Both the position numbers and the translations under genes were made by a program. Positions 2,716 to 21,715 of a stretch of 32,000 bases of DNA are shown piece by piece. The notes beneath the pieces are model-generated. The model did not search any database. It was not told where the DNA came from and saw nothing but the letters and a program-made list of their open reading frames with translations. The stretch lies in NCBI GenBank assembly GCA_964648855.1, contig CAZYLT010000004.1:169532-201531 (forward strand), written 5' to 3'. Source of the stretch: an uncultured archaeon. GTDB lineage: Archaea > Asgardarchaeota > Thorarchaeia > Thorarchaeales > Thorarchaeaceae. The stretch's first letter is position 1; each line of letters starts with the position of its first letter.

Positions 2716-3216
2716 ATGGAGCAGAAAGACCTGAAAGATAAAAACCAGCGAACCGTTTCCATTGGTCTACTCTTAATTCTTCTAATTTTGTTTTTCATCC
2801 TTCCAATCTCGATGGAAGTGTATGATGATTCACCTCTCAATATTTTCAGTGTCACGTGGACATTGCTTTATAACCCAAGAACCTCTGGTCGGACACTCAT
2901 ATTATGGCAACCTTCTGTCTGGATTATCGGAATAATGGCGAGCTTTCTGAGATTAGTATTCCTTCTTCAGATTGGTCGTTATTTTGCAGGAAAGACTACA
3001 CGTGCTCGCACGCTAGCACTCGGTCTACTGGCTGAACTACAGATGGCCCTTCTCTATGGTGGTTCACTGATCTACTCTACTCTAGTGCACGGACTGGCAC
3101 CATCTACCTTCCTCCTACCAACTCCCATCTTCCTGATCATTGGCTGGCTGTTCATACGAATCCATCCTCCGGAAAGGCACGAGCAACTATCGGATTGGCT
3201 TGACTACGAAAAATAG
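2716..3216 (+). CDS. Hypothetical membrane protein (about 4 TM)
   Basis: 166-aa hydrophobic ORF with a G-rich RBS (AGGGGG) before the ATG. Confidence 0.7.
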   Translation: MEQKDLKDKNQRTVSIGLLLILLILFFILPISMEVYDDSPLNIFSVTWTLLYNPRTSGRTLILWQPSVWIIGIMASFLRLVFLLQIGRYFAGKTTRARTLALGLLAELQMALLYGGSLIYSTLVHGLAPSTFLLPTPIFLIIGWLFIRIHPPERHEQLSDWLDYEK

Positions 3217-3246
3217 CCTCTGAATCTTCAAGTACTAAGAAAGAAA

Positions 3247-3618
3247 CTACAACCTAATCGGGTTCGGCCCTATCTCCCGAATTTTTTCAGCAAAATCGTT
3301 GATGTGCTTAGCAAACAGGTCTCCCTTAACCGCGCTCACGAACACCATTTTCACGCGTTTCTTGTTCATGTCCAGCTTATCGACCAACCATCGTGCAAAT
3401 CGCGCTCGTCTCTCGGCACCCAAGTTGCCGGTCTTGTAGGCACAGTCAACCGGGTACCAGCCCGCTATCAAGACACCGATTCTCCCCTCCTGGAGTGCCT
3501 TCATGATGAAATTGATATCAAGTTTCGCGGTGCAGGACATTCGGATGATTCGCGCGCTCACATCGTACTGTAACTTCATGGTTCCGGCAATATCCAACGC
3601 GGCGTACCTGCACTGCAT
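3247..3618 (-). pseudogene. mvhD: 5'-truncated, decayed mvhD fragment (copy 1, codons 14-136 of the intact gene)
   Basis: Colinear with 9200-9571. Lacks the first 13 codons including the first conserved Cys. Substitutions in conserved motifs: GWYPVDC for GCHPGDC, MSC for MPC, EGRIG for EGADG, SAVKG for SAAEG. Confidence 0.85.
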
Positions 3619-3627
3619 GATGAATTG

Positions 3628-4125
3628 CTAGTCACTAAAGCTTCTTGCTACGGATATTGCTTGTTTGTAGACCTTTGAATCCAACCTAAATCCTCGGTCA
3701 ATCATCCTGTCGAGAATTGATATGAATTCGTTATAGTGCAGCATGGATTTCGACAAGGCCTGGAGAAGGACTCCAACAGTTCCTAGACATGTTACTCCCA
3801 GAATTTCCGCAGCACTTCTTCCCAACTTGTCGTCTATCAGAAGCAGACCGTCCATCTCCCTAGCCAGTAAGATAGCTGCAGCCTCTCCTCTTTCAACTCC
3901 TGCGCCCTCGGCTAATTGCTCTACCTCGTCATGAGCTGAGTTTTCAACACGTAGCCATCCATCATGCACTGCAGAAGCTATCAATAGTGCATCCGGCGAG
4001 TTAGTAGATTCACCGGTCTCTTGGAAAACCTCCCTCGGAATCAACATCTCGGTGTATAGCTCTCTGAGCAGATGAAGTCGTCCTGACTTTGCGAGGTAGA
4101 TCAGTGGGCTCGCGTTACTGACCAC
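3628..4125 (-). CDS. PIN-domain (VapC-like, DUF3368-type) toxin
   Basis: VVSNASPLIYLAK, GEAAAILLA, LLLIDD and LGTVGVLL motifs. Overlaps the 3' end of the upstream antitoxin. Start uncertain: GTG 4125 preferred, ORF open to 4176. Confidence 0.88.
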   Translation of the reverse strand: MVSNASPLIYLAKSGRLHLLRELYTEMLIPREVFQETGESTNSPDALLIASAVHDGWLRVENSAHDEVEQLAEGAGVERGEAAAILLAREMDGLLLIDDKLGRSAAEILGVTCLGTVGVLLQALSKSMLHYNEFISILDRMIDRGFRLDSKVYKQAISVARSFSD

Positions 4126-4429
4126 TCTGTTGTTCTTTGACAAGAGCAAGGTCACGCTCCAGGTCCTCTTCGTCATACGAGATGGGTATTGCTGCCTTAT
4201 CCGCTTCTTCTATCATTTTTCTCAAGGGGAGTCCCGCCATGGATGCCGCCCTCCAGAGGGAAACCCTTCTCTCCCTGTACGCCTTGAGGGCTCTCTCTAG
4301 GAGAAACTGCTGAATGCCAATATCTAGTGCCCGCCGGATCATCTCCGACCTGTCAATCTGCTCTTCTCTGGCGATGAGCTCGAGCTTCTTGATGATCTCA
4401 TCGGGTAGTCGTACTGTGACTGTATCCAT
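4115..4429 (-). CDS. Antitoxin: ribbon-helix-helix (CopG-like) + UPF0175 domain
   Basis: MDTVTVRLPDE...DRSEMIRRAL (RHH) followed by YRERRVSLWRAASMAGL (UPF0175); coupled to the PIN gene. Confidence 0.88.
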   Translation of the reverse strand: MDTVTVRLPDEIIKKLELIAREEQIDRSEMIRRALDIGIQQFLLERALKAYRERRVSLWRAASMAGLPLRKMIEEADKAAIPISYDEEDLERDLALVKEQQSGQ

Positions 4430-4437
4430 CGTGTATC

Positions 4438-4462
4438 GTATACAATATATTATTTTGTATAC
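4438..4462. promoter_or_regulatory. Inverted-repeat operator / promoter of the TA operon
   Basis: GTATACAA (4438-4445)-N9-TTGTATAC (4455-4462) perfect inverted repeat in an AT-rich stretch just upstream of the RHH antitoxin ATG, typical of TA autoregulation. Confidence 0.6.
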
Positions 4463-4613
4463 ATAAAGCTTTGCTCCTCTCTTGCTCAGTCATAGACGTC
4501 TGTCAAGAAAGCCAATACCCTCTGCGTGTCGGCTCCTCTCTCACTTCTATCGTAAGACGAGTGCGTGAAACCCACAAATAGCATTCGATGTCATCTCAAA
4601 GGAGGTGGATACA

Positions 4614-5048
4614 GTGAATATTCGTCCCTTCAGTCCTGAGGATATTGCCTAGATTGTTTCTCTCACAAATGAGTATGCGTCATTTGACTCTGATGTGACT
4701 GCAGCTGATTTTTCCTCTGCCCACGCTTTTCCTCCAGGCCTACTTGTGGCCGAAGTGCACGGTCACATTGTGGCATTCATATTTGGCTATATCAAGGATG
4801 TACCGGGTACCATCCTGAATCGATGGAACGCACAAAGAGTAGCACAGATTGACCTCTTGGTGGTTGAACCATCCTATAGACGGCAAAGCATCGGTGAAAC
4901 ACTGATGCGCAAACTAGAAGAGACATTCCGAGAAGAAGATGTGGACCTGGTGTTGCTGCCCTACCCTGCTGAAGCTACAGAGGCAAAACACCTCTATGAC
5001 AAACTCGGTTTTGAGGTCCGTGCCTATGCCATGAAACAGTGCCTCTGA
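4614..5048 (+). pseudogene. GNAT-family N-acetyltransferase interrupted by an in-frame TAG at codon 13
   Basis: Strong RBS GGAGGTGG (4601-4608), then GTG 4614 giving MNIRPFSPEDIA*IVSLTNEY... in frame with the 4695-5048 ORF. GNAT motifs LVVEPSYRRQSIGETLM and AKHLYDKLGF. TAG at 4650-4652. Confidence 0.75.
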
Positions 5049-5051
5049 TCC

Positions 5052-5423
5052 CTAGAGCCGTATCGGGTTGGGTCCTATCTCTCGAATCGTGTCAGCAAAA
5101 TCGTTGATGTGCTTGGCGAACAGGTCACCCTCAGCCGCACTCACGAAGACCATCTTCACACGTTCCCTATTCATGCCCAGATTGTCCACCAACTCTCTGG
5201 CAAACCTGACCCTCCTCTCAGCCCCTAAGTTACCCGTCTTATACGCGCAGTCTCCTGGGTGACAACCCACCACCAACACACCGTCCGCGCCCTCCTGCAG
5301 CGCCTTCATGATGAAGTTGATGTCCAAACGTGCGGTACAGGGCATCCGGATAATCCGCGCACTCACGTCGTACTGGATCTTCATAGTCCCTGCGAGATCC
5401 GACGCGGCGTACATACATTGCAC
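5052..5423 (-). pseudogene. mvhD: 5'-truncated mvhD fragment (copy 2, codons 14-136)
   Basis: Near-identical protein to residues 14-136 of the 9200-9610 product (RMPCTARLD, GCHPGDC, SAAEG intact), but homology stops at the M14-equivalent codon and the first Cys is absent. Confidence 0.85.
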
Positions 5424-5498
5424 CAAATTCTTCTTATTGCCCAGATAGAAACTGATGGAATAGAAACCAAAATCAGTATCTATCCCTGGATAGATTCA

Positions 5499-6158
5499 TT
5501 ACCATATAGGCGAAGACGGAAAATCAGCGTCTTGCTTTTCGTATTTTCTTCGCATCTCTTTTTGCATTTTGTCAAACTCTTTTTGCTTAGATATATGAAT
5601 CAACGAATCCACGAACCCTATGGTCGTCTTGATGCCCCAGAAGTTGATATTCCTTTGTTTCCTATCTGCTTTCAAAGGACTTGAAATAATCCACTCCCCA
5701 TCCCTATGCACTACATCAACATACATCCATTCAAACCGTTTCTCTGTTCCTATGCGTCCAAGTATACTGGATACCAACCCAATTCCTACAGACGCGCCTT
5801 CTAAGTCGAGATCTTCGCTAATTTGACCTATTTTCTTTATTTTGTCAAGAAACATTCCACTACCGAGTTCTGTGTATATCTTGTTTTTCACATCGTGGCT
5901 GCGGAAGACACTCTTTTTCCCAAATAATTTAACCATAGGATGGTTTCTCGGAATAATTTCATGAACTACAAGCCAACAGGCATATGCCTTTGCAACCTCT
6001 TCTATTGCCAGATTCTTAAGCATCAATGCATGGGTCATCGACACATTTTGGGCAACAAGTGCTGCCTCTTTCACCAACGCTTTTGCATTCCTGAGGGACT
6101 CTATCATCGCCTCATGATACACTTCTCTTGGTGGCAATTTAGATGCCATTTGTAGCAC
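5499..6158 (-). CDS. AbiV-family abortive infection protein (HEPN-like)
   Basis: NAKALVKEAALV...LAIEEVAK...FRSHDVK matches the AbiV signature NAxxLxxxA...ExxxK...FxxHxxK. Start uncertain (ATG 6149 possible). Confidence 0.72.
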   Translation of the reverse strand: MLQMASKLPPREVYHEAMIESLRNAKALVKEAALVAQNVSMTHALMLKNLAIEEVAKAYACWLVVHEIIPRNHPMVKLFGKKSVFRSHDVKNKIYTELGSGMFLDKIKKIGQISEDLDLEGASVGIGLVSSILGRIGTEKRFEWMYVDVVHRDGEWIISSPLKADRKQRNINFWGIKTTIGFVDSLIHISKQKEFDKMQKEMRRKYEKQDADFPSSPIW

Positions 6159-6827
6159 CTATGCCATCTGAAGCAGAGCTCTCTCTTGCTCTTCAGGAAT
6201 CTCCTTGGCCTCGTCGGGGAAGTATCTCTTTTTGAGGAAATACTCCAATGTAGTTTCATCCATCTCATACAGAGCTGGGCGAGGCATCCAGACAATCAAA
6301 TCCTTCTTGTAGATGTATCCCTCTGCAATCTCGTCCTGGAACTGGAGAATCAGATCTAATGCCCTATCCACTGTCTTTCTGTTGACACCTGTCCGTCTGG
6401 CCAATTCTGCGATGGTCAGGTTGTCCTCTATCTGCAGCACCTTAAATAGCCTGTCCACTACCTCTTCGATTGAGGTTCTTCCCTCCGACTTGAACATCTC
6501 TCTTATTTCTGCTGTATCTGGCTTTTCATCACTCTCAGTGAAGAAGCGCTTCTCTATGTACCACTGACGCATCTCCTTTGGGAGTTTCATCTTATCCAGT
6601 CTGTCTTTGAGCCACACCATCTTTCCATAACCGCCCTCAAGCACTCTAATCTCGAATGCTGCGAACTGGTCCTGCTCTGTTATCAAGAAATTGACTGCCC
6701 GGTCAATCGCCCGCCAGTCAGTGCCACTCTTTTCTGCTATTTCCCGCAGCGAAATCGGGGAATTCGTCATCAAAACCTCCAGTGACCTCTCAATCGATTC
6801 CTCGAAAGTTGTCCGTCCTTTTGTCAT
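6159..6827 (-). CDS. Tandem-duplicated HTH DNA-binding protein
   Basis: Two homologous halves: GRTTFEESIERSLEVL...ISLREIAEKSGTDWRAIDRAV and GRTSIEEVVDRLFKVL...LTIAELARRTGVNRKTVDRAL. ATG 6827 preferred over the longer 6920 start. Confidence 0.75.
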   Translation of the reverse strand: MTKGRTTFEESIERSLEVLMTNSPISLREIAEKSGTDWRAIDRAVNFLITEQDQFAAFEIRVLEGGYGKMVWLKDRLDKMKLPKEMRQWYIEKRFFTESDEKPDTAEIREMFKSEGRTSIEEVVDRLFKVLQIEDNLTIAELARRTGVNRKTVDRALDLILQFQDEIAEGYIYKKDLIVWMPRPALYEMDETTLEYFLKKRYFPDEAKEIPEEQERALLQMA

Positions 6828-7090
6828 TACATCCACAATCCAATACACAAATACATCCAAATTCCTTCTTTTCACAATCCACCATATACTATACACGACA
6901 CATCTACAATTCCGTAACACATCATATTATACATTATATGACAACTATTATGCACAATAATCACGTATCATATACATTTAAATACTTTTGGCACACAAAA
7001 AAATATAAAATAACATTATAGTACTAAAAAAATACCCTAAAAGGGCAATTACTACGAATGATTTATAAGGATACTCTTCGCTAGCGAATT

Positions 7091-9199: not shown

Positions 9200-9610
9200 T
9201 TATAGTCGAATGGGATTGGGACCAATCTCGCGAATCTTGTCTGCGAAGTCGTTGATCTCCTTCGCAAACTTCTCCCCTTCAGCCGCGCTCACGAACACCA
9301 TCTTCACCCGCTCCTTGTTCATGCCCAGTTTATCAACAAGTTCCCTGGCGAACCTGACCCGTCTCTCAGCTCCGAGATTGCCTGTCTTGTATGCGCAATC
9401 ACCGGGATGGCAACCAACAATCAGAACCCCATCTGCACCTTCCTGAAGCGCCTTCATAATGAAATTGATATCGAGCCTAGCAGTACAGGGCATCCGGATG
9501 ATCCGCGCGCTCACGTCGTACTGGATCTTCATCGTTCCGGCCAAGTCTGCAGCCGCATAACAGCACTGCATGCAGCCGAAGATGACGATGTTCATGTCTT
9601 TAGGGGGCAT
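9200..9610 (-). CDS. mvhD: Methyl-viologen-reducing hydrogenase delta subunit / hydrogenase iron-sulfur subunit (intact copy)
   Basis: IVIFGCMQCCYAAADLAG, RMPCTARLD, GADGVLIVGCHPGDC, VSAAEG and GPNPI motifs. RBS GAGG and a TATA-like element upstream. Confidence 0.93.
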   Translation of the reverse strand: MPPKDMNIVIFGCMQCCYAAADLAGTMKIQYDVSARIIRMPCTARLDINFIMKALQEGADGVLIVGCHPGDCAYKTGNLGAERRVRFARELVDKLGMNKERVKMVFVSAAEGEKFAKEINDFADKIREIGPNPIRL

Positions 9611-9744
9611 AGGTAATAGATAACCTCACTCTTGTGATTCTGGATTGATTTTCTTCCTCCATATAATCTTTCAGTCGTAGAATAAGCTTTGATTTGTGGC
9701 AAAGCCACTTATTTTTTCTAAATCCAAATATTTTGGATGCATGC

Positions 9745-9995
9745 ACCGACCCGAATCAGGTCTGGGTAGAGGGTGAGCGAACCCCCTCGGTGACCGTCAA
9801 CTCCCGTGTTCCACCCTGCTCGCGACCGCTGTCACCAGCGAACCCGGAGACCTCTCCCCGAGCCTGTACACGAGCTTTATCCGAGCAACCCTCGGATGGA
9901 GTTTCACTCCGCTGCACACTATTGCCATGACTATCAGTAGCCTTGCGGGCGTCGATGGTGGCAGACGGCTGTTCCACGGTTCTTCCCACGGCAGG
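9745..9995 (-). ncRNA. Putative omegaRNA/reRNA scaffold overlapping the tnpB 3' end
   Basis: Dense hairpins within the low-complexity tail codons: GAGGG/CCCTC (9769-9788), GGAG/CTCC (9846-9857), ATCCGAG/CTCGGAT (9879-9897), GGAGT/ACTCC (9898-9910) and a closed domain at 9920-9993. TnpB guide RNAs are known to overlap the gene 3' end. Boundaries approximate. Confidence 0.55.
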
Positions 9996-11531
9996 GTCGG
10001 TAGTGCTCACAAACTCTGCAAGCAGGGTCTGGTCATGGCACTCGGCCGCGGACCGCCCCCGTGAAGCTGATCTCTTCGAGGACGGTTCGGACTTCTCGTT
10101 AGAGCGTGTTCTCCTCCGAGCCTTCAAGCTTGCCTGTTTCTTCTCATTAGGAAACAACCAACGCTCTAGTCCGGTCTCATTCGTAAGTGAAGGAATGAGC
10201 TTGATGAGGCGCCGGGCGATGTTGATGGCGCCGTTCTTGTCGGCATTGGAGCGATAGCCACAGGTGGTACATATGAAGAGGGACTGCTTCGGCCTGACTC
10301 CCTTGGAACCACAGCGGTGGCAGATGATTGATGTCCAGGACTCAGGGACAGGAACGAAGTGCGAGTCCTTCCCATCCACCCTCCAACCCTCTTGGACAAG
10401 AGCGTGCTTGAGCCCCTCGCTGACTCGTGCAAAGGTCCAGCGAGCCACCTTCTTTCTGAAGGACTTGCTCTTGCCACTCTTTCTTCCTGCGCTACGGCGG
10501 ATGTTGGTGAGGCGACCAATGGCCACATAGAGGTCATACTTCTTGGAGAGCTCGAGGATATGGGTGGTGAGCTCTCGGACGAGCACACCATCAAAGTCAG
10601 TACTGATGTTAGCACGGCGGCTGCGAAGTTCCTTGAGGCGCTCCGCCACACCGTCGTACGGCCACCCTGCATTCTTCCGGTCACACATCTCTCGTTGTAG
10701 AGCGTCAACCATCTCATCGTACCGCTCTATGTGACTGATCTTTTCCGGTTGCGTGAAGTAGCGTACGTATCTCACCCGTTGTTCAGTCAGCACAACAGAA
10801 CAGACCGCCTTGTCAATACCGAGATCAATACCCAACACTGCTGGAGGCAGACCAGTCATGTCAACCACCTCCACCTCCACTCTTACAGCAAACACAACCC
10901 ACCATTTACGACGGGCGTCCTTGAAGAGCCTCAGGGATGTGACCTCACCCTCATCCAATCTGTTCAGATGATAGGAAGAGGGATTCAAAGGAATACGCAA
11001 TCTATCATGGGTCCAGCTATCCGTCTGTGCAGAGTCCAAGGAGTCCAACAGGTTCAGCCAATGCTTTGTTTCCTGTCCCCGTCTATATTCTAGCTTGAAT
11101 CTCCTGGCATATACATACCGGGGAAGCTTCCTTGCTCGATACCCCTGTGCCTTGAGCGGGGGCTGTCCTCCCAGCTCAAGATAGCTGTTCCACATGGCAG
11201 CCGCAACTTGCCTGCACTCCTGCAGCTCGTTGGTTGAGATGTTTGGGAATCTCTTCTTGAAGTCATGAGGAACAGACAGTCTTCTCTTAGCTGGGTCCTT
11301 GAACCGCTCCGCGGTGAGGGTCAACTTCTCCAGTGCTCCACCATTGATCCGTTTTCGTTTCTTACCGACAATGAGTTCTTTCTCGTGACGCGCAATGACC
11401 CCAAGAAACGCCCGGATGACTCGTGTATCCCGTCCGGTCAATCTCTCCAACCTAGACCTATCAGCATCACTCATGCAGTTCCATTTCACAGGAACTTTCA
11501 CACTGATGATTACAGTCTGGCTCTCGGGCAT
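9756..11531 (-). CDS. tnpB: TnpB/Cas12f-family RNA-guided endonuclease with rearranged RuvC-II and long C-terminal tail
   Basis: RuvC-I VLGIDLG, Zn ribbon CHRC...CTTC, RuvC-III NADKNGAINIA. The canonical RuvC-II position reads VAIGRL, and an alternative Glu occurs in VPESWTS. ATG 11531 (MPESQ) preferred, ORF open to 11627. No tnpA nearby. Confidence 0.88.
   Translation of the reverse strand: MPESQTVIISVKVPVKWNCMSDADRSRLERLTGRDTRVIRAFLGVIARHEKELIVGKKRKRINGGALEKLTLTAERFKDPAKRRLSVPHDFKKRFPNISTNELQECRQVAAAMWNSYLELGGQPPLKAQGYRARKLPRYVYARRFKLEYRRGQETKHWLNLLDSLDSAQTDSWTHDRLRIPLNPSSYHLNRLDEGEVTSLRLFKDARRKWWVVFAVRVEVEVVDMTGLPPAVLGIDLGIDKAVCSVVLTEQRVRYVRYFTQPEKISHIERYDEMVDALQREMCDRKNAGWPYDGVAERLKELRSRRANISTDFDGVLVRELTTHILELSKKYDLYVAIGRLTNIRRSAGRKSGKSKSFRKKVARWTFARVSEGLKHALVQEGWRVDGKDSHFVPVPESWTSIICHRCGSKGVRPKQSLFICTTCGYRSNADKNGAINIARRLIKLIPSLTNETGLERWLFPNEKKQASLKARRRTRSNEKSEPSSKRSASRGRSAAECHDQTLLAEFVSTTDPAVGRTVEQPSATIDARKATDSHGNSVQRSETPSEGCSDKARVQARGEVSGFAGDSGREQGGTRELTVTEGVRSPSTQT
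9920..9993 (+). repeat. 74-bp direct repeat, copy A (copy B at 21642-21715)
   Basis: TATTGCCATGACTATCAGTAGCCTTGCGGGCGTCGATGGTGGCAGACGGCTGTTCCACGGTTCTTCCCACGGCA; 73/74 identical to copy B. Confidence 0.95.
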
Positions 11532-11544
11532 GTGCATCACTTGA

Positions 11545-11655
11545 CAATTTAAACTTCCGACCTGTCTTGTGTCAGAAGGGAGTTCACTCAGCTCTCTATG
11601 CAAGAGATTGAATGATAATCTCCACACATTCTATAGTATCAGGCAATTTAAACTT
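11545..11655 (-). promoter_or_regulatory. Two identical TATA-like boxes upstream of tnpB
   Basis: CAATTTAAACTT at 11545-11556 and 11644-11655 (AAGTTTAAATTG on the minus strand, BRE/TATA-like). Confidence 0.45.
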
Positions 11656-11784
11656 ATGAAGACTGTAGATTTATGGACACTCAATATTCAATTCTAAGAC
11701 CTCATATGCCTTATTTTGGTGGATAAAGCATTGGTCGTAAAGCCCGAGATAGTATATATAAATAACCAACACAAACGGTAGAAT

Positions 11785-14700
11785 ATGGCTCATTTTGGGT
11801 CTCCCAAGCAGCCAAACAAGGTCCTCATCACTGCCTTCAAGCGTGGGATGGCAGGGACATTGGCTCTCGCACGGGACCGTGCCACGGGAGTTGTCCGACC
11901 ATTGTACTATGGGGATAACCGTGTGAAGGGCATGGCGAAGATCTGGGATGAGGCCAAGACGGCCTATCGCGAAACCCATGACCGGGACAGGCAGCGCAGG
12001 TCGGCCTCCTATCGACAGAGCTTGACCCCAGACCAGCTTGAGGAACTGGACAGGAGGGTCCTCCCTGATAGCAGACTTCTCCTGATGGCGGAGAACAACA
12101 TCCGGCGCAACTTCTACCGCATTATGTTGAAGACAGCCGTCAAATATGGCAACAAAGAGACCAAACGTGTCAAGCGTGGCGAGGGGCCACAGGGATACCT
12201 CAACCTGCTCTGGGACTATGCAGGAAGTAGAATCCGTGATGTCTGCAAGGCCCGGTACTTCTTTCCGCCGCCCACAGAGCTCAAGCTCGTAGATGGGTCT
12301 GAGGGGGTAGGGTATCCCTCCCTTGGAGGACAACCTGCATACTTCCTGAACCACGATAACCTCCCCGAACTGGACTTTGGAGACATGATACGAAGCCACC
12401 TGGTCGAGCTAGCTCGACAGTGCATGAAGTACAATGTGCCTCTCAGGCCAGCAAAACGGTACATCGATCAGCTACTAAACAGGCTTCTTCCGTTTCTGGA
12501 CTATGTCTATACTGGAAGAAAAACCGGGCGGTCCAACTTTGTCCGAGAGGGATTAGAAGAACTACGAGATGTGGTGGATAGAATCAGTATACTCTATGGC
12601 ATGCGAAACGGCCGAGCTCCCTCTATCACCACCATGGTTGCAGTCGATACAGAGGTGACATTGTCGGACGCTGATGTGCCTATGGTTGAAGAGTATCCAG
12701 ATTGCGTCACTGAACCTCAGCTCGAGAACATGCCTCATATACCCGTAGAGAATGTCATAACCACTGATACCTCAATCGAAGAAGATATTGAGTATCCAAC
12801 CACTCCGAACTTTTTTACAACCATTGTTGGAAGAGCGGAGGACAAGGGTGTTGATGAGTGGAGCGATGCTCTGGATACGCTCAAGCAATTGCTGGATGAG
12901 GGCATCCTAGACAAAGAGGACGCCGCACAGATTCTGAAGCAGGCAAAAGAGGAGAGCAGAAGAATCGGCAGTGCATTCCATGACTTTGTATCAAAGGGCT
13001 TTCCCAGTCCCTTCGTGATGAGTGCAGTGGTCCATCATGGAGATGAGATGGTACGGGATAGGTCCGGTCTCCTGATAGTATCCGAGTTAGGCGTTGCAGG
13101 AGGACAGGGACGAGTTGACCTTGCCCTCTTCAGACGAAAGCTCTTGCCAAGTGTGGATGAGGCCCCGCCACAAATCGTCTATGAACCCTGCATGGTTGTT
13201 GAGATAAAGACGAAGAGCGCCTTTGAACTCGATATCTATGGGGTGAGGTCCAAGAGTGAGAAGGAGAAGAATGTTGTCAGCGAATTCCTACTGGAGAGAA
13301 GGAGGCTCACTGACGAAGAGTGGATGGACATACGGGGAAGTATCTCTCCCGAGAGTGTGAAACAGATTGAGCTCTACAGTGAAGCCATACTGAATGAGTA
13401 CCAACGAGTGGCATGGATAGATTCCAAGCCGCCAAACGAACTAATCAAAGCGGTTGTTTCGGTCGATTCAACAGAAACGTGGAATGAAGCTCGTGACGCA
13501 CTGCATGCCGTGATTATCGAAGGCTACGAGATGGCCATGAATAATGGAATTTCCACAGGCGATGTTCTTCAGGTCAGCGAGAATGGAATCCCGCTGAGAT
13601 TGGTCATGCATATGGTATCAGATAGCTGTTCAGCCACTGAAGTGGAGCCACCTGCTAAGAGAGAAGAAAACAATCCGTTCTGTAAACATCAGGATGATGG
13701 ATTGGAATTCATTATGTATCTCTCCGTGTCCGGTCGTGGCTCCCCCTCAGAGTCTGCTGCAACAATAGCAGAGAGATGGCACGGTCTGAAGTATCTCTAC
13801 GATATGGCGCATTACAAGCACAGGGATATCATATGGTTCGACATGAATGGCGAAATCGCAGACCCGCTGCTCGGAAAGCACAGGCTGAGGTTGGCGTTCC
13901 ATGATGCATCCGTCCAGCGCTTCTTCAAGAGACGCGTCAAGGTTGTGGACATGTCCTTCACTATTGCTGAGTACTTGCATGGCAGGCAAACGAGCCGAGT
14001 AATTAGAAAATTGATTAAAGATAATGTGACTAATGCCAAGAAACCAATTGTGGTGGTAAGTGGTTGGAACTCATTGTGGCGAAGAACTGGGCCATATCAG
14101 AATCCCTTGTTGGGCGCGATACTCCTGCTCTTCCTGTCGGAGGTTTCTAAAGGTGGAACGATTCTGTGGTTCAATCGTCCGGTTCCTCTCTCTGATAATA
14201 GCTCCGTGTACCAGACAAAATGCGTGGCACCGTTCTATACCAATTCTCAATGGGAGGGTTTTATCGATAGAATCGTCTGGAATCTCCCTCTGCCTCCACA
14301 GAGGTCAAGGTCATTTACGCCTGCGGATGATTGTATCAGAGTGTCTATTATGGAAGCACCAGGTGAAACGGTCATCTCGGAGCGAATCCATATCCTCCCT
14401 CTTGAGGGATGGGGAGAAACCTTCCGGTCAGAGCCCCAAACCCCCTACGTTTCGATGATGTATTCTAAGGGAGCAGGTTTCGCAGGCTCAATGCAGACCT
14501 TAGCACAGTCTGTTGATTATGAAGATGTGTATGATCTCTTACCGCACCTCCAAGATTCTGCGATTACAGATAGCATCCCTGAAAAAGCCAGGTATGTAGT
14601 TGAAAAAGCACATGTATCGTCACGGATTCAAGATATGCACGAGTCCATCAATCTAATCAATTTCCGACCCTATCAATTTCAAGAGCGACTGGAGAGAAAC

Positions 14701-17274
14701 AAGCGGTACAAGAAGCTGCTGCCGATAGATCAGATTACGCAGAAGCGCGAATACCGAACCATGACACTTGGTGTGGAGGAACCCCAGAGAAATACAAGGC
14801 CTCCGTCTGAAGACATGCTGATAGCATGTGATGTTGATGATATTGACATAGCCCTATCCGAGGTACGTGGCCTGAAAAAGGCCATCTCATTCCTCTTAAA
14901 CCAAGAATCTCCTCCAAGCCACATTGTGAGATTGTGTGAAGAACTACTGGATATCATTGAGCCAACAGATGCTACTCAATCTAGTCAGAAGGTCATGAAC
15001 AGACTGCGCCTAGTTAGACAGACTCTTGAGAATGACATATCCACGCAAAATAGTTGGACGCAGCTAGAACCGTATCGGATGCAAGCGCATCGTCAACTGA
15101 AACCGCATATCCGAGCTCACATCGAGCAGCTGTCCCAAAGACATCCTGATATCATGCTCATCACGGGAAATCATCTCTTTTTGATGTTGCATGCTGCACT
15201 CAATACGATTCCTTCCAGCATCCATCTACGAACTCTGGATCTTCTGTGGCAATACCTTGTTCCTTGGCATTATACAAGACTTGGACTCAGTCCAGAATAC
15301 AGGTATGGAACACATGCTGGCCGGTCAGTATTAGACCGTCATGTGCTCTTTGAGAGACTGAAGTCGCGAGCCTTAGCATTGAATGCTCTGATTGCCGAAG
15401 ACATCTCTCTAAGGAGTGTTCGGATGGGGCAGGTGATAATCCGAAGAACAGGATTAGAGCAGGAGCCGTTGGCGACATGGCTGATCTTCCAGAGAACCAT
15501 GGGAGGGACTGAGATGAACGCGGCGCTCATCACACCCTATGCTTTAGACCCAGGCGAGGCGCCATATGAGCTTCTCAAGGGCCTTATTTCGGATGCGCCC
15601 TTCTGGAGTGAGAGTGACATCAGCAGACTAGCAGACTCTGCACGTAGTGAAAAGAAGGATATCAGAGTGCCGCTGATGATTGCCAACCAGAAGGATATGC
15701 AGCTTCTCTTTGTACGGCACCAAGATAGTGATGTCTGGATGCCAGTAGGACGAATCGAGTATACGAGTCATGCATTCCAGAGTGTGACATTGATTAGAAC
15801 GCTGCAGATACGTGCAGAGGAACAGGCAGTTCCGGTTTCTACGAACGCAGTTCCTAAATCCCTCTTGGACACTCAAGACTTGGTTGATGTTGCCCTTCTT
15901 GTCATTCGTCGAGGTCTGGGTGAACCAGTCAATGCGAAATGTCACATCTCGTTGGACCATGAGAGAGGAAGCTATCATATTTTCTTTGAGGTAGCAGAGG
16001 AGGATGATAATGAATCGGAAGCTTTGGCATTGACCATCAAGAGCACCATTGAGTTGGTTGCACTACTCAGGAAGCCAGACTATCAGTGTGAGCCCGTGGT
16101 CATTGACGGGAAACGGCTCATCTGGAACCGATTTCAGGACATCACCTATCATGAAGATGTGCAACTCATCCGTCCATGGGTGGAGAGAAGGAATCCATTT
16201 CCACACCTGGCGATGGAGTTGCCACCGAGTGCTGAGGACCTCCTCGCTGCCAAACAGGACTTCAATATCAGAGTGGAGCCCCATCACGACCCGTGGGTGT
16301 GCCCCCTTCGACATGTTTCCAAGGAGGACATAGAGAGACAGCAGCGCCTTGCTCCAGTGGCAAATATGCACTATCTCTTCCGTTATGAGATTCCTGTCGG
16401 AACACCGAAACGCCTCCTTGATGAAACAGGACTAAGACATGGTTCCTGCTGGGGTATCCGAATCCATACACCTCACTCGCTTCCGATGGAGCTTCAGGAC
16501 CTGATGTCAGTTCGTTTCACCGCTGCTCAGCTCGCGACACTCGTGCGGTCGAGTGAGATTGTCTACTGGTCGAACGAGCAACAGGAGTGGATTGTTCACT
16601 CGATGGATCTCGTGTGGAGAAACCATGTCATCTCGGAAGCCCAGGAGGCCTGGCATCTCAGACGAGTCATTGAGGAGTACCTCGGGCAAGAACTGGAACT
16701 AGTGAAACCGGGAACCTATCTGCAGAAACAGGAACGATGGTGCCCCTACTTCATCATTGAGCAAGAGAGAGTAGTAGTGGGTCTGGAGCGGGGTGCAACA
16801 AAGGAGAAACGAGAGCGGGTGCTTAGAGAGAGGAATGTTGCTCTCCGAGCAAGAGAAGAGGTCGAGAACATCCTCAGTCAGGGCATGACTACGCTTCTTG
16901 ATGAGCAGGGCATCACTCCCGACAGAAGACTCCAGAGTGATATTAGAAACGAGATAGTATTCATACTTGAGGAGGCAGTGACATCAGGAGAGGACATGAA
17001 ATTGACCTACTCAGGAGCAATGATCCGCAGAGATGAGGTCGGAGGTAGGCGGGTTTATGTCATCTTTGAATCTCCTTATGATGAATACTATCTACCAGTT
17101 ACTCCTCATCTTCATGATATTGCAAGAATTGAACATCTTATACCCTCAGAGGTTCGAAATGATATCAAATGTCAACTCGAAACCCATCCCTTTCGTAAGT
17201 CGGATATAGAAGAAGCAGTTGCAGGAGTGATGGGTTTACTTAGGGACGAAGGACTGTCGCACTCCAAGGAATGA
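11785..17274 (+). CDS. Very large (1829 aa) multidomain protein with a PD-(D/E)XK (RecB/Cas4-like) nuclease domain and a probable degenerate P-loop ATPase domain
   Basis: Uninterrupted 5.5-kb ORF. SE434...GRVD445...VVE473IK...Q527IELY nuclease motifs. Then IMYLSVSGRGSPSES, IIWFDMNGE and PIVVVSG, resembling decayed HerA/VirB4-like motifs. TATA (TATATATAAATA) about 25 bp upstream suggests a leaderless transcript. Confidence 0.8.
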   Translation: MAHFGSPKQPNKVLITAFKRGMAGTLALARDRATGVVRPLYYGDNRVKGMAKIWDEAKTAYRETHDRDRQRRSASYRQSLTPDQLEELDRRVLPDSRLLLMAENNIRRNFYRIMLKTAVKYGNKETKRVKRGEGPQGYLNLLWDYAGSRIRDVCKARYFFPPPTELKLVDGSEGVGYPSLGGQPAYFLNHDNLPELDFGDMIRSHLVELARQCMKYNVPLRPAKRYIDQLLNRLLPFLDYVYTGRKTGRSNFVREGLEELRDVVDRISILYGMRNGRAPSITTMVAVDTEVTLSDADVPMVEEYPDCVTEPQLENMPHIPVENVITTDTSIEEDIEYPTTPNFFTTIVGRAEDKGVDEWSDALDTLKQLLDEGILDKEDAAQILKQAKEESRRIGSAFHDFVSKGFPSPFVMSAVVHHGDEMVRDRSGLLIVSELGVAGGQGRVDLALFRRKLLPSVDEAPPQIVYEPCMVVEIKTKSAFELDIYGVRSKSEKEKNVVSEFLLERRRLTDEEWMDIRGSISPESVKQIELYSEAILNEYQRVAWIDSKPPNELIKAVVSVDSTETWNEARDALHAVIIEGYEMAMNNGISTGDVLQVSENGIPLRLVMHMVSDSCSATEVEPPAKREENNPFCKHQDDGLEFIMYLSVSGRGSPSESAATIAERWHGLKYLYDMAHYKHRDIIWFDMNGEIADPLLGKHRLRLAFHDASVQRFFKRRVKVVDMSFTIAEYLHGRQTSRVIRKLIKDNVTNAKKPIVVVSGWNSLWRRTGPYQNPLLGAILLLFLSEVSKGGTILWFNRPVPLSDNSSVYQTKCVAPFYTNSQWEGFIDRIVWNLPLPPQRSRSFTPADDCIRVSIMEAPGETVISERIHILPLEGWGETFRSEPQTPYVSMMYSKGAGFAGSMQTLAQSVDYEDVYDLLPHLQDSAITDSIPEKARYVVEKAHVSSRIQDMHESINLINFRPYQFQERLERNKRYKKLLPIDQITQKREYRTMTLGVEEPQRNTRPPSEDMLIACDVDDIDIALSEVRGLKKAISFLLNQESPPSHIVRLCEELLDIIEPTDATQSSQKVMNRLRLVRQTLENDISTQNSWTQLEPYRMQAHRQLKPHIRAHIEQLSQRHPDIMLITGNHLFLMLHAALNTIPSSIHLRTLDLLWQYLVPWHYTRLGLSPEYRYGTHAGRSVLDRHVLFERLKSRALALNALIAEDISLRSVRMGQVIIRRTGLEQEPLATWLIFQRTMGGTEMNAALITPYALDPGEAPYELLKGLISDAPFWSESDISRLADSARSEKKDIRVPLMIANQKDMQLLFVRHQDSDVWMPVGRIEYTSHAFQSVTLIRTLQIRAEEQAVPVSTNAVPKSLLDTQDLVDVALLVIRRGLGEPVNAKCHISLDHERGSYHIFFEVAEEDDNESEALALTIKSTIELVALLRKPDYQCEPVVIDGKRLIWNRFQDITYHEDVQLIRPWVERRNPFPHLAMELPPSAEDLLAAKQDFNIRVEPHHDPWVCPLRHVSKEDIERQQRLAPVANMHYLFRYEIPVGTPKRLLDETGLRHGSCWGIRIHTPHSLPMELQDLMSVRFTAAQLATLVRSSEIVYWSNEQQEWIVHSMDLVWRNHVISEAQEAWHLRRVIEEYLGQELELVKPGTYLQKQERWCPYFIIEQERVVVGLERGATKEKRERVLRERNVALRAREEVENILSQGMTTLLDEQGITPDRRLQSDIRNEIVFILEEAVTSGEDMKLTYSGAMIRRDEVGGRRVYVIFESPYDEYYLPVTPHLHDIARIEHLIPSEVRNDIKCQLETHPFRKSDIEEAVAGVMGLLRDEGLSHSKE

Positions 17275-17391
17275 GTATAACCAAAGCCGGAATCATTGAT
17301 AATACATTTATCGCAAAGCGAGATATTTTTCAATAATCATTGAAGATAAAAAATAGCGAAGAGAACCATAGCAATCAGGAGCTATCTTGCT

Positions 17392-18209
17392 TTGCATATT
17401 CCCATTATCTGTCCTAAAAACTACTACAGTTGCAGTTTTGAGATAGAATATAATCCACAGAAGATATTCGTCTTGATGCCTTTCGGGGAAGAGCAAGCCC
17501 CACAGAGTCTATTCACAGACGTCCTGAAGGAACTTCCAGGATGGCAAGTAGAACGTGCAGATACAGATCTAAGCAAACCAGAAATTTGGTGCAAGATTTG
17601 TGCGAATATTCAAGAATCCAGAGCTATTGTTGCCGACCTACCGGGCAGAATCCGAATGTTTTTCTTGAATTAGGGCTCGCCTGGGGTTTAGGTAGGCCGT
17701 TTATTTTGCTAGCTCAGGAAACGAGAAATCTGCCCTTTGATACTAGAACCTTTCATGTTATTACTTATGATAGAGCTGAAGGGGATGTACTAAATCCCGA
17801 TGAACTAGCAACGGATATTCTTCAATCACTAGATAAAATACCACAAATTCCAATGACAGAAGAAATCAAAGCGAGAAGTCCTGAAGAGTTTCTCTACCAG
17901 AGGATACCGAATGCAAAAAATAGGTCTGTACATCTATGGAAGAAATCCGGAAATCATTTTGTTTTGAGTGATATAGAGCTATCAGCATATCGAGTAGCTT
18001 TAGCCCTTCTGCGAACATACCCTTCGCCTGCAATGGTTAAGTCAATTGCAAAAGAAACGAGGCTTTCCAGACCCAGAGTTTCTCAAATATTGCATGGTAC
18101 ATATAGTGACACTGACAAATTCTTTGAAAAAAAGCAGTCTAAATGGACTCTTTCTGATGAAGGGATTTATTGGACAATCAACGAAGTGGTTCGCAAATCT
18201 ATCTTATGA
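17392..18209 (+). pseudogene. Nucleoside 2-deoxyribosyltransferase-like (TIR-like) domain + C-terminal wHTH, split by a single-base frameshift near 17640
   Basis: Frame 1 gives KIFVLMPF...VERAD...IQESRAIVADL. The other frame continues TGQNPNVFLELGLAWGLGRPFILL. Joined they give the ADLTGxNPNVFxELG signature, with one base missing at GACCTACCGGG. Confidence 0.8.
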
Positions 18210-18253
18210 TTGAAACATCTTCAGACATTAATGCTAAATGGGTAAGCATGCAA

Positions 18254-18769
18254 TTACTCGACAGTGATATAGGTGGGTATCACGGAGCTCTTCAACCACT
18301 CAATTCCCGCCTTCGTCAATTGGTATCCTCCCTTTAGTTCTTTGAAATAGTCTTTTGTACCTTTAACTTGTCCTCTGAGATTGGCGTTAGCAGTTGGCTG
18401 CTTCACGTCGACGTTGTTAACAACTTCTGCCTCTTCAACGGCTTTTGGATATTCTTTCAAGAGAGATAGAGCAATTTTGTGGGAGTTATCAGTTACTCTT
18501 TCGGATAGCTCGTTCTCATCCTCTGACCACAATTTGCTAGCTTCTCTCTGTAACTCCAATATCTCTAGATGCTGTTCTATTTCATCATCGAGCGACTGGG
18601 TTAAACTCCACAGCTCATGAATCAATCTATAGGCTGTTACAAATTGCCTTTTTTCCTGATCCATTCTAATGTTGCTCACCGATATTCTTGCACCATCTCG
18701 GTCTTTATTTATGGTTATACTGAAGTTGCCAACATCCTCAATGTCGATAGTTTCACTATGGCTATCCAA
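18254..18769 (-). CDS. Hypothetical protein with C-terminal wHTH-like domain (paralog family)
   Basis: KIALSLLKEYP...DYFKELKGGYQLTKAGIEW, shared with neighbouring genes. Confidence 0.7.
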   Translation of the reverse strand: MDSHSETIDIEDVGNFSITINKDRDGARISVSNIRMDQEKRQFVTAYRLIHELWSLTQSLDDEIEQHLEILELQREASKLWSEDENELSERVTDNSHKIALSLLKEYPKAVEEAEVVNNVDVKQPTANANLRGQVKGTKDYFKELKGGYQLTKAGIEWLKSSVIPTYITVE

Positions 18770-18786
18770 TTTTAAATCACTCCTAA

Positions 18787-19236
18787 CTACAGCTTCGCCA
18801 GTTTATCCTCAAATACAGATGCCGCCCATATTACTCCGTCAAGCGATATGCTTACTCCATTATTCTTGTCTAATGACAAATACCTGCTTGAATCATGTTT
18901 CTTTGCAGTTACATAAACCTTGTACGAGTTGAATGGGATCTTTAGTTTCTTCTCGATGGAATTCTTTGTCAACGTGACTGGGTAAGAAGCAGCTGCAGAA
19001 AGACAGACTGTTTTCATTTGATTTGAAAGGCTTCCTTTGGGAATGAATGCCCCCTCATCTGTATTATTACACAGCCTCCGAAGTAGCTTTATTATATCCG
19101 TGGCTCGGGCGATTCTCTCCGCATCCATAAACGCCCGAGTCACCTCTTCTGATGTTTGATTTCCAAATTCGACTGAAAATGCAGTTTCTTCATCTGTTTT
19201 TCCTGTTATCCTTTTTCTGATAGAATTCTCACTCAT
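18787..19236 (-). CDS. Hypothetical protein with C-terminal wHTH-like domain (paralog family)
   Basis: TVCLSAAASYP...RYLSLDKNNGVSISLDGVIW. RBS GAGGGG before ATG 19236 (preferred to 19344). Confidence 0.65.
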   Translation of the reverse strand: MSENSIRKRITGKTDEETAFSVEFGNQTSEEVTRAFMDAERIARATDIIKLLRRLCNNTDEGAFIPKGSLSNQMKTVCLSAAASYPVTLTKNSIEKKLKIPFNSYKVYVTAKKHDSSRYLSLDKNNGVSISLDGVIWAASVFEDKLAKL

Positions 19237-19622
19237 GTTATATTTCCCCCTCAATATTGAGAGTAGTCTAGCTATCTGGTGCATAATCTGTATCTGCCAG
19301 CTAGCAAAGCATCCCACAGGCTGCATAATAAGGAATAGACCCAACTAAAATGCTTATCGCATGCATCCCACAACACTAAATGGACATATCTAGGTGCACG
19401 ATGGTAATGTATCTGAATTTGAAATATCTGAAAAGCGAAAAGGGAATACCATCACCATAAATCTCTGTGGATCGGAATGTATACTATGAGTTCCTGATTA
19501 ACTATCTACGGTTGAAAATGAATATCAGCTAACATAAGTTTCAGAAATATGCATTCCGAATGATGATGTTCCGCTGTTCGAAATGCATTCTAATCCACTC
19601 ATAAAAATTATATTTGATGGGC

Positions 19623-20123
19623 TTAGGAATCTTTAGATTCTATTTTTTCAATGATTTCCGGCACAGTTTCCTTCAAAGCAAACTCCAAGCCCTTCTTCGT
19701 GAATTTGTATCTTCCTTTGACACAACTCTCAAAATAATCTGAATACTTCTCATACTTCTTCCTTGACCCAGTAAAAACTCTTGAGGGGCGTCCAGTATTA
19801 ATCTTCCATTCATGCGCTATTGCCGACGACCCCATGCACCTATTGTAATTGCGCAATAACGAGATTGTAACCATATGATAGTCATTTTTCAAAATATCTT
19901 TGATATCTCTTTCTTGAAATTGTAATGCGTCACTAATTTTGTCCAGTTCTGTTGAAATCCTATCCAGCATTTCAACAACTTCACATGCAATACTTAGTCG
20001 ACGATATGCATTCTTAATGTCTTCATCTGGCTTTGCAGTAATCCTCACTTTAGTTTTTCCAGCATACTTCTCTAATATCATGCTCTCAAATTTATCCTCA
20101 ATCAACAAGCAATCACGCTCCAT
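19623..20123 (-). CDS. Hypothetical protein with C-terminal wHTH-like domain (paralog family)
   Basis: MVTISLLRNYN...DYFESCVKGRYKFTKKGLEF. Confidence 0.7.
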   Translation of the reverse strand: MERDCLLIEDKFESMILEKYAGKTKVRITAKPDEDIKNAYRRLSIACEVVEMLDRISTELDKISDALQFQERDIKDILKNDYHMVTISLLRNYNRCMGSSAIAHEWKINTGRPSRVFTGSRKKYEKYSDYFESCVKGRYKFTKKGLEFALKETVPEIIEKIESKDS

Positions 20124-20243
20124 GCTTCAATTGTTCTATTATTTGTTTCAACATGTAAAATTTTTCTGAATGAGATAGGGAGTCAGAATGGTCCTCTTCT
20201 TCCAGAGGTTTCTTGCTATTCAATCGCAACACGGGCAATAGTG

Positions 20244-21056
20244 TTATGAGATATTCCTCCATGTACTGAATAATGCAATAACAGCTTTATTTACATCGGC
20301 TCTAAGATTCAACAACTCTCCCTTTGTTCCATGATCTATAATCGAATGTGCTCTTGCATTACCCTCCTCTCGAAGTTTCTCTATCACCCTCATGATTTTG
20401 TTGTCTAAACCAAATGGTTTAAAATCCTCAATACTATCACGCAGGTTCTTAATTAGTTGTGAAAGATTACGAAAACGCTGTTCCGATTTTATAAAAAACA
20501 GGTCGAGGTTAGCCATACCGTAATTAGCTCTCAAGAGGGAAACAATCAAATTCTCAATGAGCTTGCGCACAAGAACGATTGTTCCAGAATATGCACCAAT
20601 ATCGAAAGTATCGTTAATCTCACCTATCAGTTGTTCGTATTCTGGATACCCCGCCATATCCAACTCAAGATAATTTAATCTTGGAGTTTTTCTCGCCTCT
20701 CTGTCCTTCTCCCTTGTTTCGAGTTCTTCTTTTGTATACATGTCTTTGAAGCTATACACTTGCGCTTCATTATAGGCATCTTCAAGCCTTGCCGCTTGAG
20801 TCGAGTTCATTTCCAGAATCCATGCCTTTGAATCACACTTAGGACAAGTAGCCTGTTCCTGTATCGGTATTTCCACGGTTTCCCCCTCAGGAGTTCTATA
20901 ATACATTCTATCATAGATGTTCTTCCGGCTGAATCTCTTAGGTAGTGTTGCAACCAACAATCCATCCCTTTGACGGATGTACTTGTGTCTATAATCGCAT
21001 TCCAAATTCGGACAATCCACTTCTACCGTGACAGAATCGTTCAATACTTTCACCAT
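20244..21056 (-). CDS. Zn-ribbon + HEPN-like (DUF4145-type) protein
   Basis: N-terminal CPNLEC and CPKC. C-terminal GAYSGTIVLVRKLIENL...LREEGNARAH (Rx3Nx2AH HEPN-type motif). Confidence 0.7.
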   Translation of the reverse strand: MVKVLNDSVTVEVDCPNLECDYRHKYIRQRDGLLVATLPKRFSRKNIYDRMYYRTPEGETVEIPIQEQATCPKCDSKAWILEMNSTQAARLEDAYNEAQVYSFKDMYTKEELETREKDREARKTPRLNYLELDMAGYPEYEQLIGEINDTFDIGAYSGTIVLVRKLIENLIVSLLRANYGMANLDLFFIKSEQRFRNLSQLIKNLRDSIEDFKPFGLDNKIMRVIEKLREEGNARAHSIIDHGTKGELLNLRADVNKAVIALFSTWRNIS

Positions 21057-21148
21057 GTTTACTTGAAGATGATAATAAGCCTCTCCTATAAACTAATGGA
21101 GATACAACATCAAGGAACCAAGCCCATTTCCTTTTGCGCCCTGTAGCT

Positions 21149-21583: not shown

Positions 21584-21641
21584 TTTGATTCACCAGCTAT
21601 TCCAGTTTGAATTTTGATAAATTCTCGGGCATGCTACACCT

Positions 21642-21715
21642 TATTGCCATGACTATCAGTAGCCTTTCGGGCGTCGATGGTGGCAGACGGCTGTTCCACG
21701 GTTCTTCCCACGGCA
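21642..21715 (+). repeat. 74-bp direct repeat, copy B (copy of tnpB 3' region)
   Basis: 73/74 identical to 9920-9993; intergenic. Confidence 0.95.

Follow-up and report, generated by a model that had tools for sequence, protein, structure and literature searches.

The stretch of DNA analyzed in this study (hereafter the window) comprises 32,000 nucleotides of contig CAZYLT010000004.1 from the genome of an uncultured Thorarchaeota archaeon, and the gene of interest is a tnpB located on its minus strand at positions 9756..11531. Our results indicate that this gene probably encodes the RNA-guided nuclease of an Asgard mobile-element family, a TnpB of the rearranged class that is accompanied by its own omegaRNA. 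According to this interpretation, the protein would be a TnpB-family RNA-guided DNA endonuclease in which the glutamate of RuvC-II has moved from strand beta4, where a glycine now stands, to a position just after strand beta5, and it would be made together with an omegaRNA of approximately 370 nt whose gene overlaps the last third of the open reading frame (ORF). The protein and the RNA would belong to a Thorarchaeota mobile-element family with left and right end motifs of its own, in which a nuclease/ATPase-like partner of approximately 1800 aa would be the best candidate for the mobilizing enzyme, and guide-directed cutting by TnpB may keep or re-install the element at its site (homing or retention). 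The lineage studied here would have kept its single site upstream of mvhD while several genera diverged. The Asgard host, which a first-pass annotation made from the sequence alone had raised as a possibility, was verified by the Thorarchaeota source names and by a 91% identical locus in the metagenome-assembled genome (MAG) TEKIR_14.

The membership of the protein in the TnpB family, also proposed in the first-pass annotation, is established by Pfam, by sequence matches in the PDB and by the predicted fold. The TNB/zinc-finger domain PF07282, the sole Pfam domain found, reached 44.3 bits against a cut-off of 26.3, and the NCBIfam TnpB model NF040570 matched with 85.3 bits (E 4.8e-24), which lies under its curated cut-off of 100. 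An AlphaFold2 (AF2) model built from an alignment of 44 sequences had a mean confidence (predicted local distance difference test, pLDDT) of 72, with residues 1-467 of the model confident and the last 124 disordered (pLDDT <30). When this model was submitted to Foldseek, the matches included AsCas12f (E 5.6e-17), ISFba1 TnpB (2.8e-13), and ISDra2 TnpB (1.8e-11), and Fanzor2 appeared at rank 18. Structure prediction, which had been suggested as a check, returned a TnpB/Cas12f fold, and the outcome in which the protein falls outside the TnpB family did not occur. The folded core with its WED, REC, RuvC, and zinc-finger TNB parts, delimited by the AF2 model, Foldseek, and the ratio of nonsynonymous to synonymous substitution rates (dN/dS), occupies 10167..11531 on the minus strand and corresponds to residues 33-487. 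Residue numbers are given here for the 623-aa ORF (9756..11627, minus strand) that opens at an upstream GTG; numbers in the alignment, which starts at M33, are 32 lower.

The residues expected of the rearranged active site (all on the minus strand) are in the places where they had first been reported, and D268, G371, E429, and D463 are invariant across the 44 homologs. The RuvC-I aspartate D268 lies in VLGIDLG (motif DLG; 10824..10826) and the RuvC-III aspartate D463 in NADKN (10239..10241). In the canonical position of the RuvC-II glutamate, on strand beta4 (model strand 333-340), stands G371 of VAIGRL (10515..10517), and the relocated glutamate E429 ("Ealt") of VPESWTS (10341..10343) directly follows strand beta5 (model strand 392-396). 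In the HMMER alignment to AsCas12f (8j3r), G371 pairs with the canonical RuvC-II glutamate of "IQMEDL" and E429 with the Q of "IDPQYTS." The C4 zinc finger (C436, C439, C453, and C456; 10260..10322) is covered by the PF07282 match over residues 422-470, and the six residues that separate E429 from C436 give the ExxxxxxCxxC pattern described by PMC10711439. The four cysteines, T432 and S433 are likewise invariant in the alignment, in which identity falls to 47%, and this pattern of active-site residues is well beyond chance. Moreover, the topology of the model, with G371 in beta4 and E429 right after beta5, is the one published for active rearranged TnpBs (PMC10691335). Because no member of the family departs from the arrangement of glycine and Ealt and strong purifying selection acts on the core (dN/dS 0.07-0.27 between close orthologs, at synonymous divergences, dS, of 0.24-0.59), the first-pass suggestion of an active RNA-guided nuclease of the rearranged class appears likely to be correct.

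Two other features first attributed to the protein depend on where the reading frame is taken to begin and end. The true start is M33 (ATG at 11531) and the GTG at 11627 was rejected, since neither the homologs nor the conservation nor the model extends upstream of M33: the homologs, 572-610 aa long, align with the ORF only from this residue onward, and a confident beta strand starts there in the model. The coding sequence thus delimited (9756..11531, minus strand) comprises 591 aa plus the stop codon, and the interval 11532-11627 accounts for 32 non-coding residues of the 623-aa frame and carries the conserved left-end motif. The "divergent N-terminus" of the first description was a product of this extension, and the size "larger than typical" TnpB is in part an artefact of the same 32 residues and of a tail of approximately 135 aa that runs over the omegaRNA.

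The omegaRNA scaffold (9804..10173, minus strand) overlaps tnpB codons ~485-607 and was delimited by RNAalifold, by a drop in dS, and by metatranscriptome contigs. RNAalifold applied to 23 loci returned 13 helices with 67 pairs, 41 of them showing compensatory changes, and 94.9% of the paired cells were compatible with pairing vs. 81.4% in shuffled alignments (none of the 500 shuffles reached the observed value) and 38-46% when partners were slid by 1-3 columns. The last ~138 codons are conserved as nucleotides even between paralogs whose cores are only ~47% identical, and between close orthologs this tail shows dS of 0.04-0.09, about five- to ten-fold below that of the core, together with dN/dS of 0.5-1.4; therefore, the constraint acts on the nucleotides and not on the protein. 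The C-terminal ~135 residues would for the most part arise incidentally, as translation runs on across the RNA gene. Additionally, metatranscriptome contigs of 266-373 nt (depth 10-89), assembled from four salt-lake runs of two studies and 96-97% identical to the window, cover only positions 9786-10179 and leave the rest of tnpB uncovered. This span corresponds to the predicted scaffold (10173-9804) with as many as 18 nt added, and adapter sequence is present at most of the contig ends. Altogether, the structured RNA of ~370 nt at the 3' end of tnpB is read as an omegaRNA, and the contigs are consistent with its expression. No Rfam family was found anywhere in the window at gathering thresholds. 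An orphan fragment of the omegaRNA (83 nt, window 21633-21715, same strand), 95% identical to its middle part (9911-9993), was also observed ~11.7 kb away from the resident copy, in intergenic DNA next to a truncated DUF3160 gene.

Of 87 genomes belonging to the order, 51 contain family members, a single genome giving as many as 14 matches, and a scan of GTDB contigs with the protein returned a single locus. The host genome itself contains three further full-length paralogs, two of which carry stop codons, besides fragments and at least 12 copies of a ~563-nt repeat that lacks tnpB and consists of the complete omegaRNA scaffold between a left and a right end. Such paralogs, decayed copies, and mini-elements are the behavior of a mobile-element family. 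The mini-elements (G000:C8:17520-18082 and at least 12 related copies on C6, C20, C34, C45, C56, and several contig ends) have a left end with a TATA-like box, and TCTAGA (in one copy TGTAGA) borders them at either end, perhaps as a target-site duplication or a preferred target. At another locus of the same genome (L089, G000:C11:24000-38000, ~3000-6980), the space between a FAD-oxidoreductase gene and truD contains ~3.9 kb enclosed by an omegaRNA 3' end on one side and a left-end-like piece on the other. An ORF of 579 aa within the enclosed DNA runs on the opposite strand, has no Pfam match, and resembles neither TnpB nor the giant protein described below.

The ends of the element are defined by a motif and its inverse. 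On the right, the scaffold is followed by a lineage-variable segment of 14 nt (9783..9796, minus strand), which the locus alignment marks as a candidate internal guide or inner right-end repeat, and then by the right-end motif GTTCGCTCA (9774..9782, minus strand), whose family consensus GTTCACTCA is the same as the motif of the Asgard aCas1-associated TnpBs (PMC10691335). Motifs of the GTTCACTCA type occur in 23 of the 23 aligned loci, an ACAGGTC-type word follows 14-22 nt past them, and paralogs diverge beyond that word. The left-end block (11546..11590, minus strand) consists of TGAGTGAAC at 11590-11582, a spacing of 16 nt, ACAGGTCGG at 11565-11557, and a TATA-like box at 11556-11546. TGAGTGAAC is the exact inverse of the right-end motif; in 30 of 34 loci it precedes tnpB by a constant distance, with ACAGGTC(G/A)G ~16 nt further on and then the TATA-like box. 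In a fixed-register test for hairpins around GTTCACTCA, stems were found in single loci and their register varied, and a repeat search over 9400-17800 found no convincing terminal repeats around tnpB and the giant gene together. Left-end-like pieces also occur 4 kb beyond a paralogous giant gene (L087) and on C11 (L089), where the flanked ORFs lack Pfam matches. A TATA-like word of 12-13 nt (AAGTTTAAATTG in the window) was observed on both sides of the ~95-nt left-end block (window 11546-11670), and words of this type co-vary between the orthologous loci L011, L014, and L024, as they would if the insertion of the block had produced a duplication.

The partner gene encodes 1829 aa and diverges from tnpB on the plus strand (11785..17274), and it was characterized through its head-to-head homologs, its motif columns, VIA-align, and the atlas. 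Its homologs form a Thorarchaeota-only family; of 34 loci, 19 show the head-to-head arrangement with tnpB, paralogs of the same genome among them. The protein had no Pfam match (E<=10), no NCBIfam match, no significant match among PDB profiles, and nothing in the feature search of the ESM Atlas. A PD-(D/E)xK motif is conserved (D445 ... D/E473-x-K475), and residues ~632-875 adopt a RecA/KaiC-like fold that lacks the Walker A lysine (VIA-align Z 12.5, root-mean-square deviation 3.6 A over 183 residues), in agreement with the atlas. An all-alpha domain (~1019-1206) with conserved Glu and His and beta-rich C-terminal domains complete the protein. The fold searches covered residues 632-1829, and matches to the RecA/KaiC-like domain took up the output of Foldseek, VIA-align, and the atlas. 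Homology to Cas1 was not detected by Pfam, NCBIfam, or PDB profile searches, nor by hhalign of seven segments against 13 canonical Thorarchaeota Cas1 proteins (probability <=0.3%). A metatranscriptome contig (depth 3.3, run X3) lies over the 5' part of the giant ORF (window 11810-11959), a weak hint of transcription in a sister strain. Between the giant gene and the orphan omegaRNA fragment lies an AT-rich island (window 17300-21600, GC 0.38-0.40) with six ORFs that have no Pfam match and no relatives elsewhere in the genome; the island (17.3-21.6 kb) was rejected as part of the element, as paralogous elements do not have its ORFs. The absence of a tnpA reported in the first-pass annotation holds, with no Y1 or serine TnpA nearby, and many TnpBs occur without TnpA, so that its absence is no bar to membership in the family. 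The description of the gene as "solo" had to be abandoned because of the pairing with the partner of ~1800 aa, the conserved end motifs, the omegaRNA, and the paralogs, decayed copies, and mini-elements in its own genome.

Several points weigh against an active nuclease of a mobile element. The cleavage of DNA at a target with its target-adjacent motif (TAM) is predicted from the sequence and by analogy with characterized relatives, and the putative place of E429 beside D268 and D463 in the active site is deduced from the topology of the model. The families of Y1 and serine TnpA were not found by Pfam among the scanned ORFs of the window or within 8 kb in the loci L011-L014, and no transposase fold was recognized in the giant partner, only the RecA-like domain without the Walker A lysine. 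The evidence for the RNA consists of assembled contigs from a sister strain of ~97% identity, with the strand unassigned, and not of raw reads from the organism itself. As regards the assignment of a guide, the ends of the RNA contigs fall within the internal variable segment and not in the flanking DNA, and the variable segment has no other match in the genome: a search for targets in the host genome with the variable 14-mer (up to 1 mismatch) and with the 20-nt right flank (up to 4 mismatches) retrieved only the element itself and one decayed copy on C16. Finally, single-copy occurrence at a fixed locus, as seen in this clade, would be expected of a resident or domesticated gene no less than of a homing element.

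This last point concerns the position of the element relative to mvhD/flpD (9200..9610, minus strand; PF02662, E 4e-48), which lies outside the element and directly downstream of tnpB in 14 of the 14 clade members. Family members with 60% or more identity to the query are present as one copy per genome and group in a single clade (100/100 support), and every one of them stands immediately upstream of mvhD/flpD; at least 13 genomes, representing 9 genera, show this arrangement. The right end of the clade members is followed by GGTCGG and the flank core TGCATGCATCC (9735..9751, minus strand, right after the tnpB stop codon), which is conserved upstream of mvhD in many genomes; across 87 genomes the core pattern gave 52 matches in 42 genomes vs. 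9 for the reversed control. At least eight further genomes hold at the same site only the omegaRNA 3' end or a right-end stub of ~30 nt, and the pairwise identities of TnpB and mvhD are not correlated (rho 0.12) and favor neither a vertical nor a horizontal history. The picture is that of an old insertion that some lineages have kept intact and under selection while it decays in others, which is what a homing-type selfish gene would be expected to show.

The same observations could be explained by a domesticated and immobile TnpB that the host keeps at the mvhD locus for guide-directed control of mvhD or for the upkeep of a cassette array, and that is no longer selfish. The occurrence of one copy per genome in a single clade across so many genera speaks for such a role, as do the strong purifying selection, although dS is saturated between genera, and the absence of the giant partner from some orthologous loci (L012, L014, and L022) that have kept tnpB. 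Besides, the flank core past the right end resembles the palindrome at which copies of mvhD are truncated, and TnpBs that are non-mobile but look active are already known (PMC10691335). However, the stubs left in at least eight other genomes show that the gene is dispensable and decays as selfish genes do, two genomes of one genus carry different subclades, the close paralogs are multi-copy and partly degenerate, and the similarity to the mvhD site extends over 11 nt with an indel, which lends no support to guide pairing. On balance we regard domestication as unlikely, and a resident of the mobile-element family that persists by homing or retention is preferred.

The mvhD region of the window has a structure of its own. 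Three copies of mvhD/flpD occur between 3247 and 9610, of which the one at 9200-9610 is intact and those at 5052-5426 and 3247-3618 lack ~13 N-terminal codons, and both truncated copies begin inside the palindrome TGCATGCA. The right flank of tnpB and the TGCATGCA site share the 11 nt with one indel mentioned above, which is too weak for guide pairing. Defense- or toxin-like cargo genes (HEPN AbiV, helix-turn-helix, cytidine-deaminase-like, and DUF3368/PIN) were observed between the mvhD copies, and copies and cargo together have the appearance of an mvhD-anchored integration or cassette array. Upstream of mvhD in other genomes (L072 on G031:C82, L084 on G061:C24, G081:C169, and G084:C182), a word made of ACAGGTCGG and TGCATGCA(T/G)CC was found in two or three tandem copies, 55-900 nt apart.

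The variable segment could have a more specific function. The 14 nt between the scaffold and GTTCACTCA might be an element-internal and heritable guide that, together with a giant nuclease/ATPase that is possibly Cas1-like, would form a single-spacer, pre-CRISPR-like system whose target would be the left end of the element itself or the TGCATGCA core where mvhD cassettes join. This idea arises because the RNA contigs end in or just before the segment (with adapter directly behind at 9790 and 9801, and a bare end at 9786), because the segment is constant within subfamilies but differs between them, because a repeat-like motif follows it, and because this motif recurs inverted at the left end, next to the tnpB promoter. 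The segment lies inside the element, since it is the same across the copies of a multi-copy mini-element subfamily and divergence begins only past the terminal word. It is a candidate either for the guide, as the RNA ends suggest, or for the inner part of an end repeat or hairpin, and the complete pre-CRISPR-like scheme seems to us improbable.

The conservation of the catalytic residues bears on a further alternative, in which the protein, like those of the TldR type, would have lost nuclease activity and only bind DNA under RNA guidance, the glycine marking lost catalysis and E429 having a structural role. The replacement of the canonical glutamate by glycine in every member and the fixation of the locus beside a host gene are what would be expected of such a protein, but the aspartates of RuvC-I and of RuvC-III and the relocated glutamate are invariant in a protein of full length, whereas known dead derivatives have lost several catalytic residues or the RuvC-III region (PMC10691335), and the same combination of glycine and Ealt is active in TvTnpB and ApmFanzor2 (PMC10530073). 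A dead binder is accordingly given very little weight. Lastly, a direct Asgard forerunner of the eukaryotic Fanzors, passed to eukaryotes by their archaeal ancestor, would suit the Asgard host and the Ealt common to all Fanzors (PMC10530073; PMC10711439) but is hardly credible, given a RuvC-I DLG where Fanzors have a near-universal DPG (PMC10711439), the appearance of Ealt in many TnpB branches (PMC10691335), sequence matches to Fanzor2 (9b0l) with E 0.0077-0.074 vs. 1e-5 to 5e-8 for Cas12f/TnpB (AsCas12f 5e-8) and a rank of 18 by fold, the lack of any Fanzor1 structure among the matches, and published trees that derive Fanzor2 from cyanobacterial IS607 pro-Fanzors (PMC10711439).

These results also delimit what is new. 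The class with glycine and a relocated glutamate has already been catalogued, and the locus is a well-preserved Thorarchaeota copy; what had not been described are the mapped omegaRNA with its contigs, the constraint on the tail as RNA only, the inverted ends, the domains of the partner, and the fixed position upstream of mvhD. Novelty and relevance to the origin of Fanzors were both overrated at first, because the class and the Asgard-specific TnpB groups with the same 3' motif had been published (PMC10691335; PMC10530073). The question of Fanzor origin is not opened by this locus, in which the feature held in common is one that arose many times and DPG is absent; the relevance is not supported because the motif is DLG and Fanzor2 is a far weaker match than Cas12f/TnpB. 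Nonetheless, the locus provides a well-documented Asgard example of the relocated-glutamate class, with a selection pattern that splits the protein-coding core from the RNA-constrained tail, and is a ready candidate for biochemistry on the TAM, the guide, and collateral activity, as well as on how TnpB elements without TnpA move.

Comparison with known systems places the protein close to characterized TnpBs. The absence of the canonical RuvC-II glutamate with a relocated glutamate is a within-family variant of TnpB (PMC10691335), and glycine or proline with a compensating glutamate has been published under the names TnpB2 (PMC10530073), RIIr clades (PMC10691335), and Ealt (PMC10711439). Within this class, TvTnpB of Thermoplasma volcanium cuts DNA in a TAM-dependent manner with no collateral activity, ApmFanzor2 also cuts DNA, and the Ealt of Fanzors is essential (PMC10530073). 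Like TvTnpB and its relatives, the Thorarchaeota protein combines the glycine, the relocated glutamate, both aspartates, the zinc finger, an archaeal host, and a 3' omegaRNA. It differs from them in having a partner of ~1800 aa in place of an IS605 TnpA, a much longer scaffold (~370 nt), and end motifs that are inverted (TGAGTGAAC / GTTCACTCA), and its activity is predicted.

Fanzors and pro-Fanzors were defined by Yoon et al. through the RuvC-I DPG together with Ealt, pro-Fanzors being present only in cyanobacterial IS607 elements (PMC10711439). The Thorarchaeota TnpB shares with Fanzor2 and pro-Fanzors the Ealt, the zinc finger, and the overall fold, but it has DLG and no IS607 serine recombinase and is not nearest to them by either sequence or fold. 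The label "Fanzor-type" in the first-pass annotation is thus retained for the Ealt only, and with respect to RuvC-I and to the much closer structures of Cas12f and TnpB it does not apply. Cas12f (AsCas12f, 8j3r/8dzj) is the best match by both sequence and fold and has the same domain order and the NADxN RuvC-III, a type that marks the "derived" TnpB clade (PMC10691335). Unlike the protein described here, Cas12f has the canonical glutamate, a CRISPR array with a tracrRNA, and a dimeric state; no CRISPR array accompanies this tnpB, and the CRISPR repeats of the host, when compared with GTTCACTCA, were unrelated to it. Immobilized or exapted TnpBs, such as TldR and other non-mobile clades (PMC10691335), resemble the present clade in their fixed position beside one host gene across genera, but in the latter the catalytic residues are all kept and the locus has decayed repeatedly in other genomes.

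The closest correspondence is with two Asgard TnpB groups that Altae-Tran et al. linked to a Cas1 homolog, in which a hypervariable stretch and then GTTCACTCA lie downstream of tnpB (PMC10691335). These groups, Cas1H-Asgard-1/2, and the family described here all occur in Asgard hosts and have GTTCACTCA behind a variable segment, a large lineage-specific gene next to tnpB, and border repeats. In the neighboring gene of this family a PD-(D/E)xK motif and a RecA/KaiC-like domain are recognizable, and no Cas1 signal was found by the Pfam, NCBIfam, PDB, hhalign, and fold searches. The Cas1 homologs of the Asgard groups are reportedly those of Makarova et al. in 2020. Taken together, the sequence likenesses indicate that the family very likely belongs to the published Asgard aCas1-associated TnpB groups.

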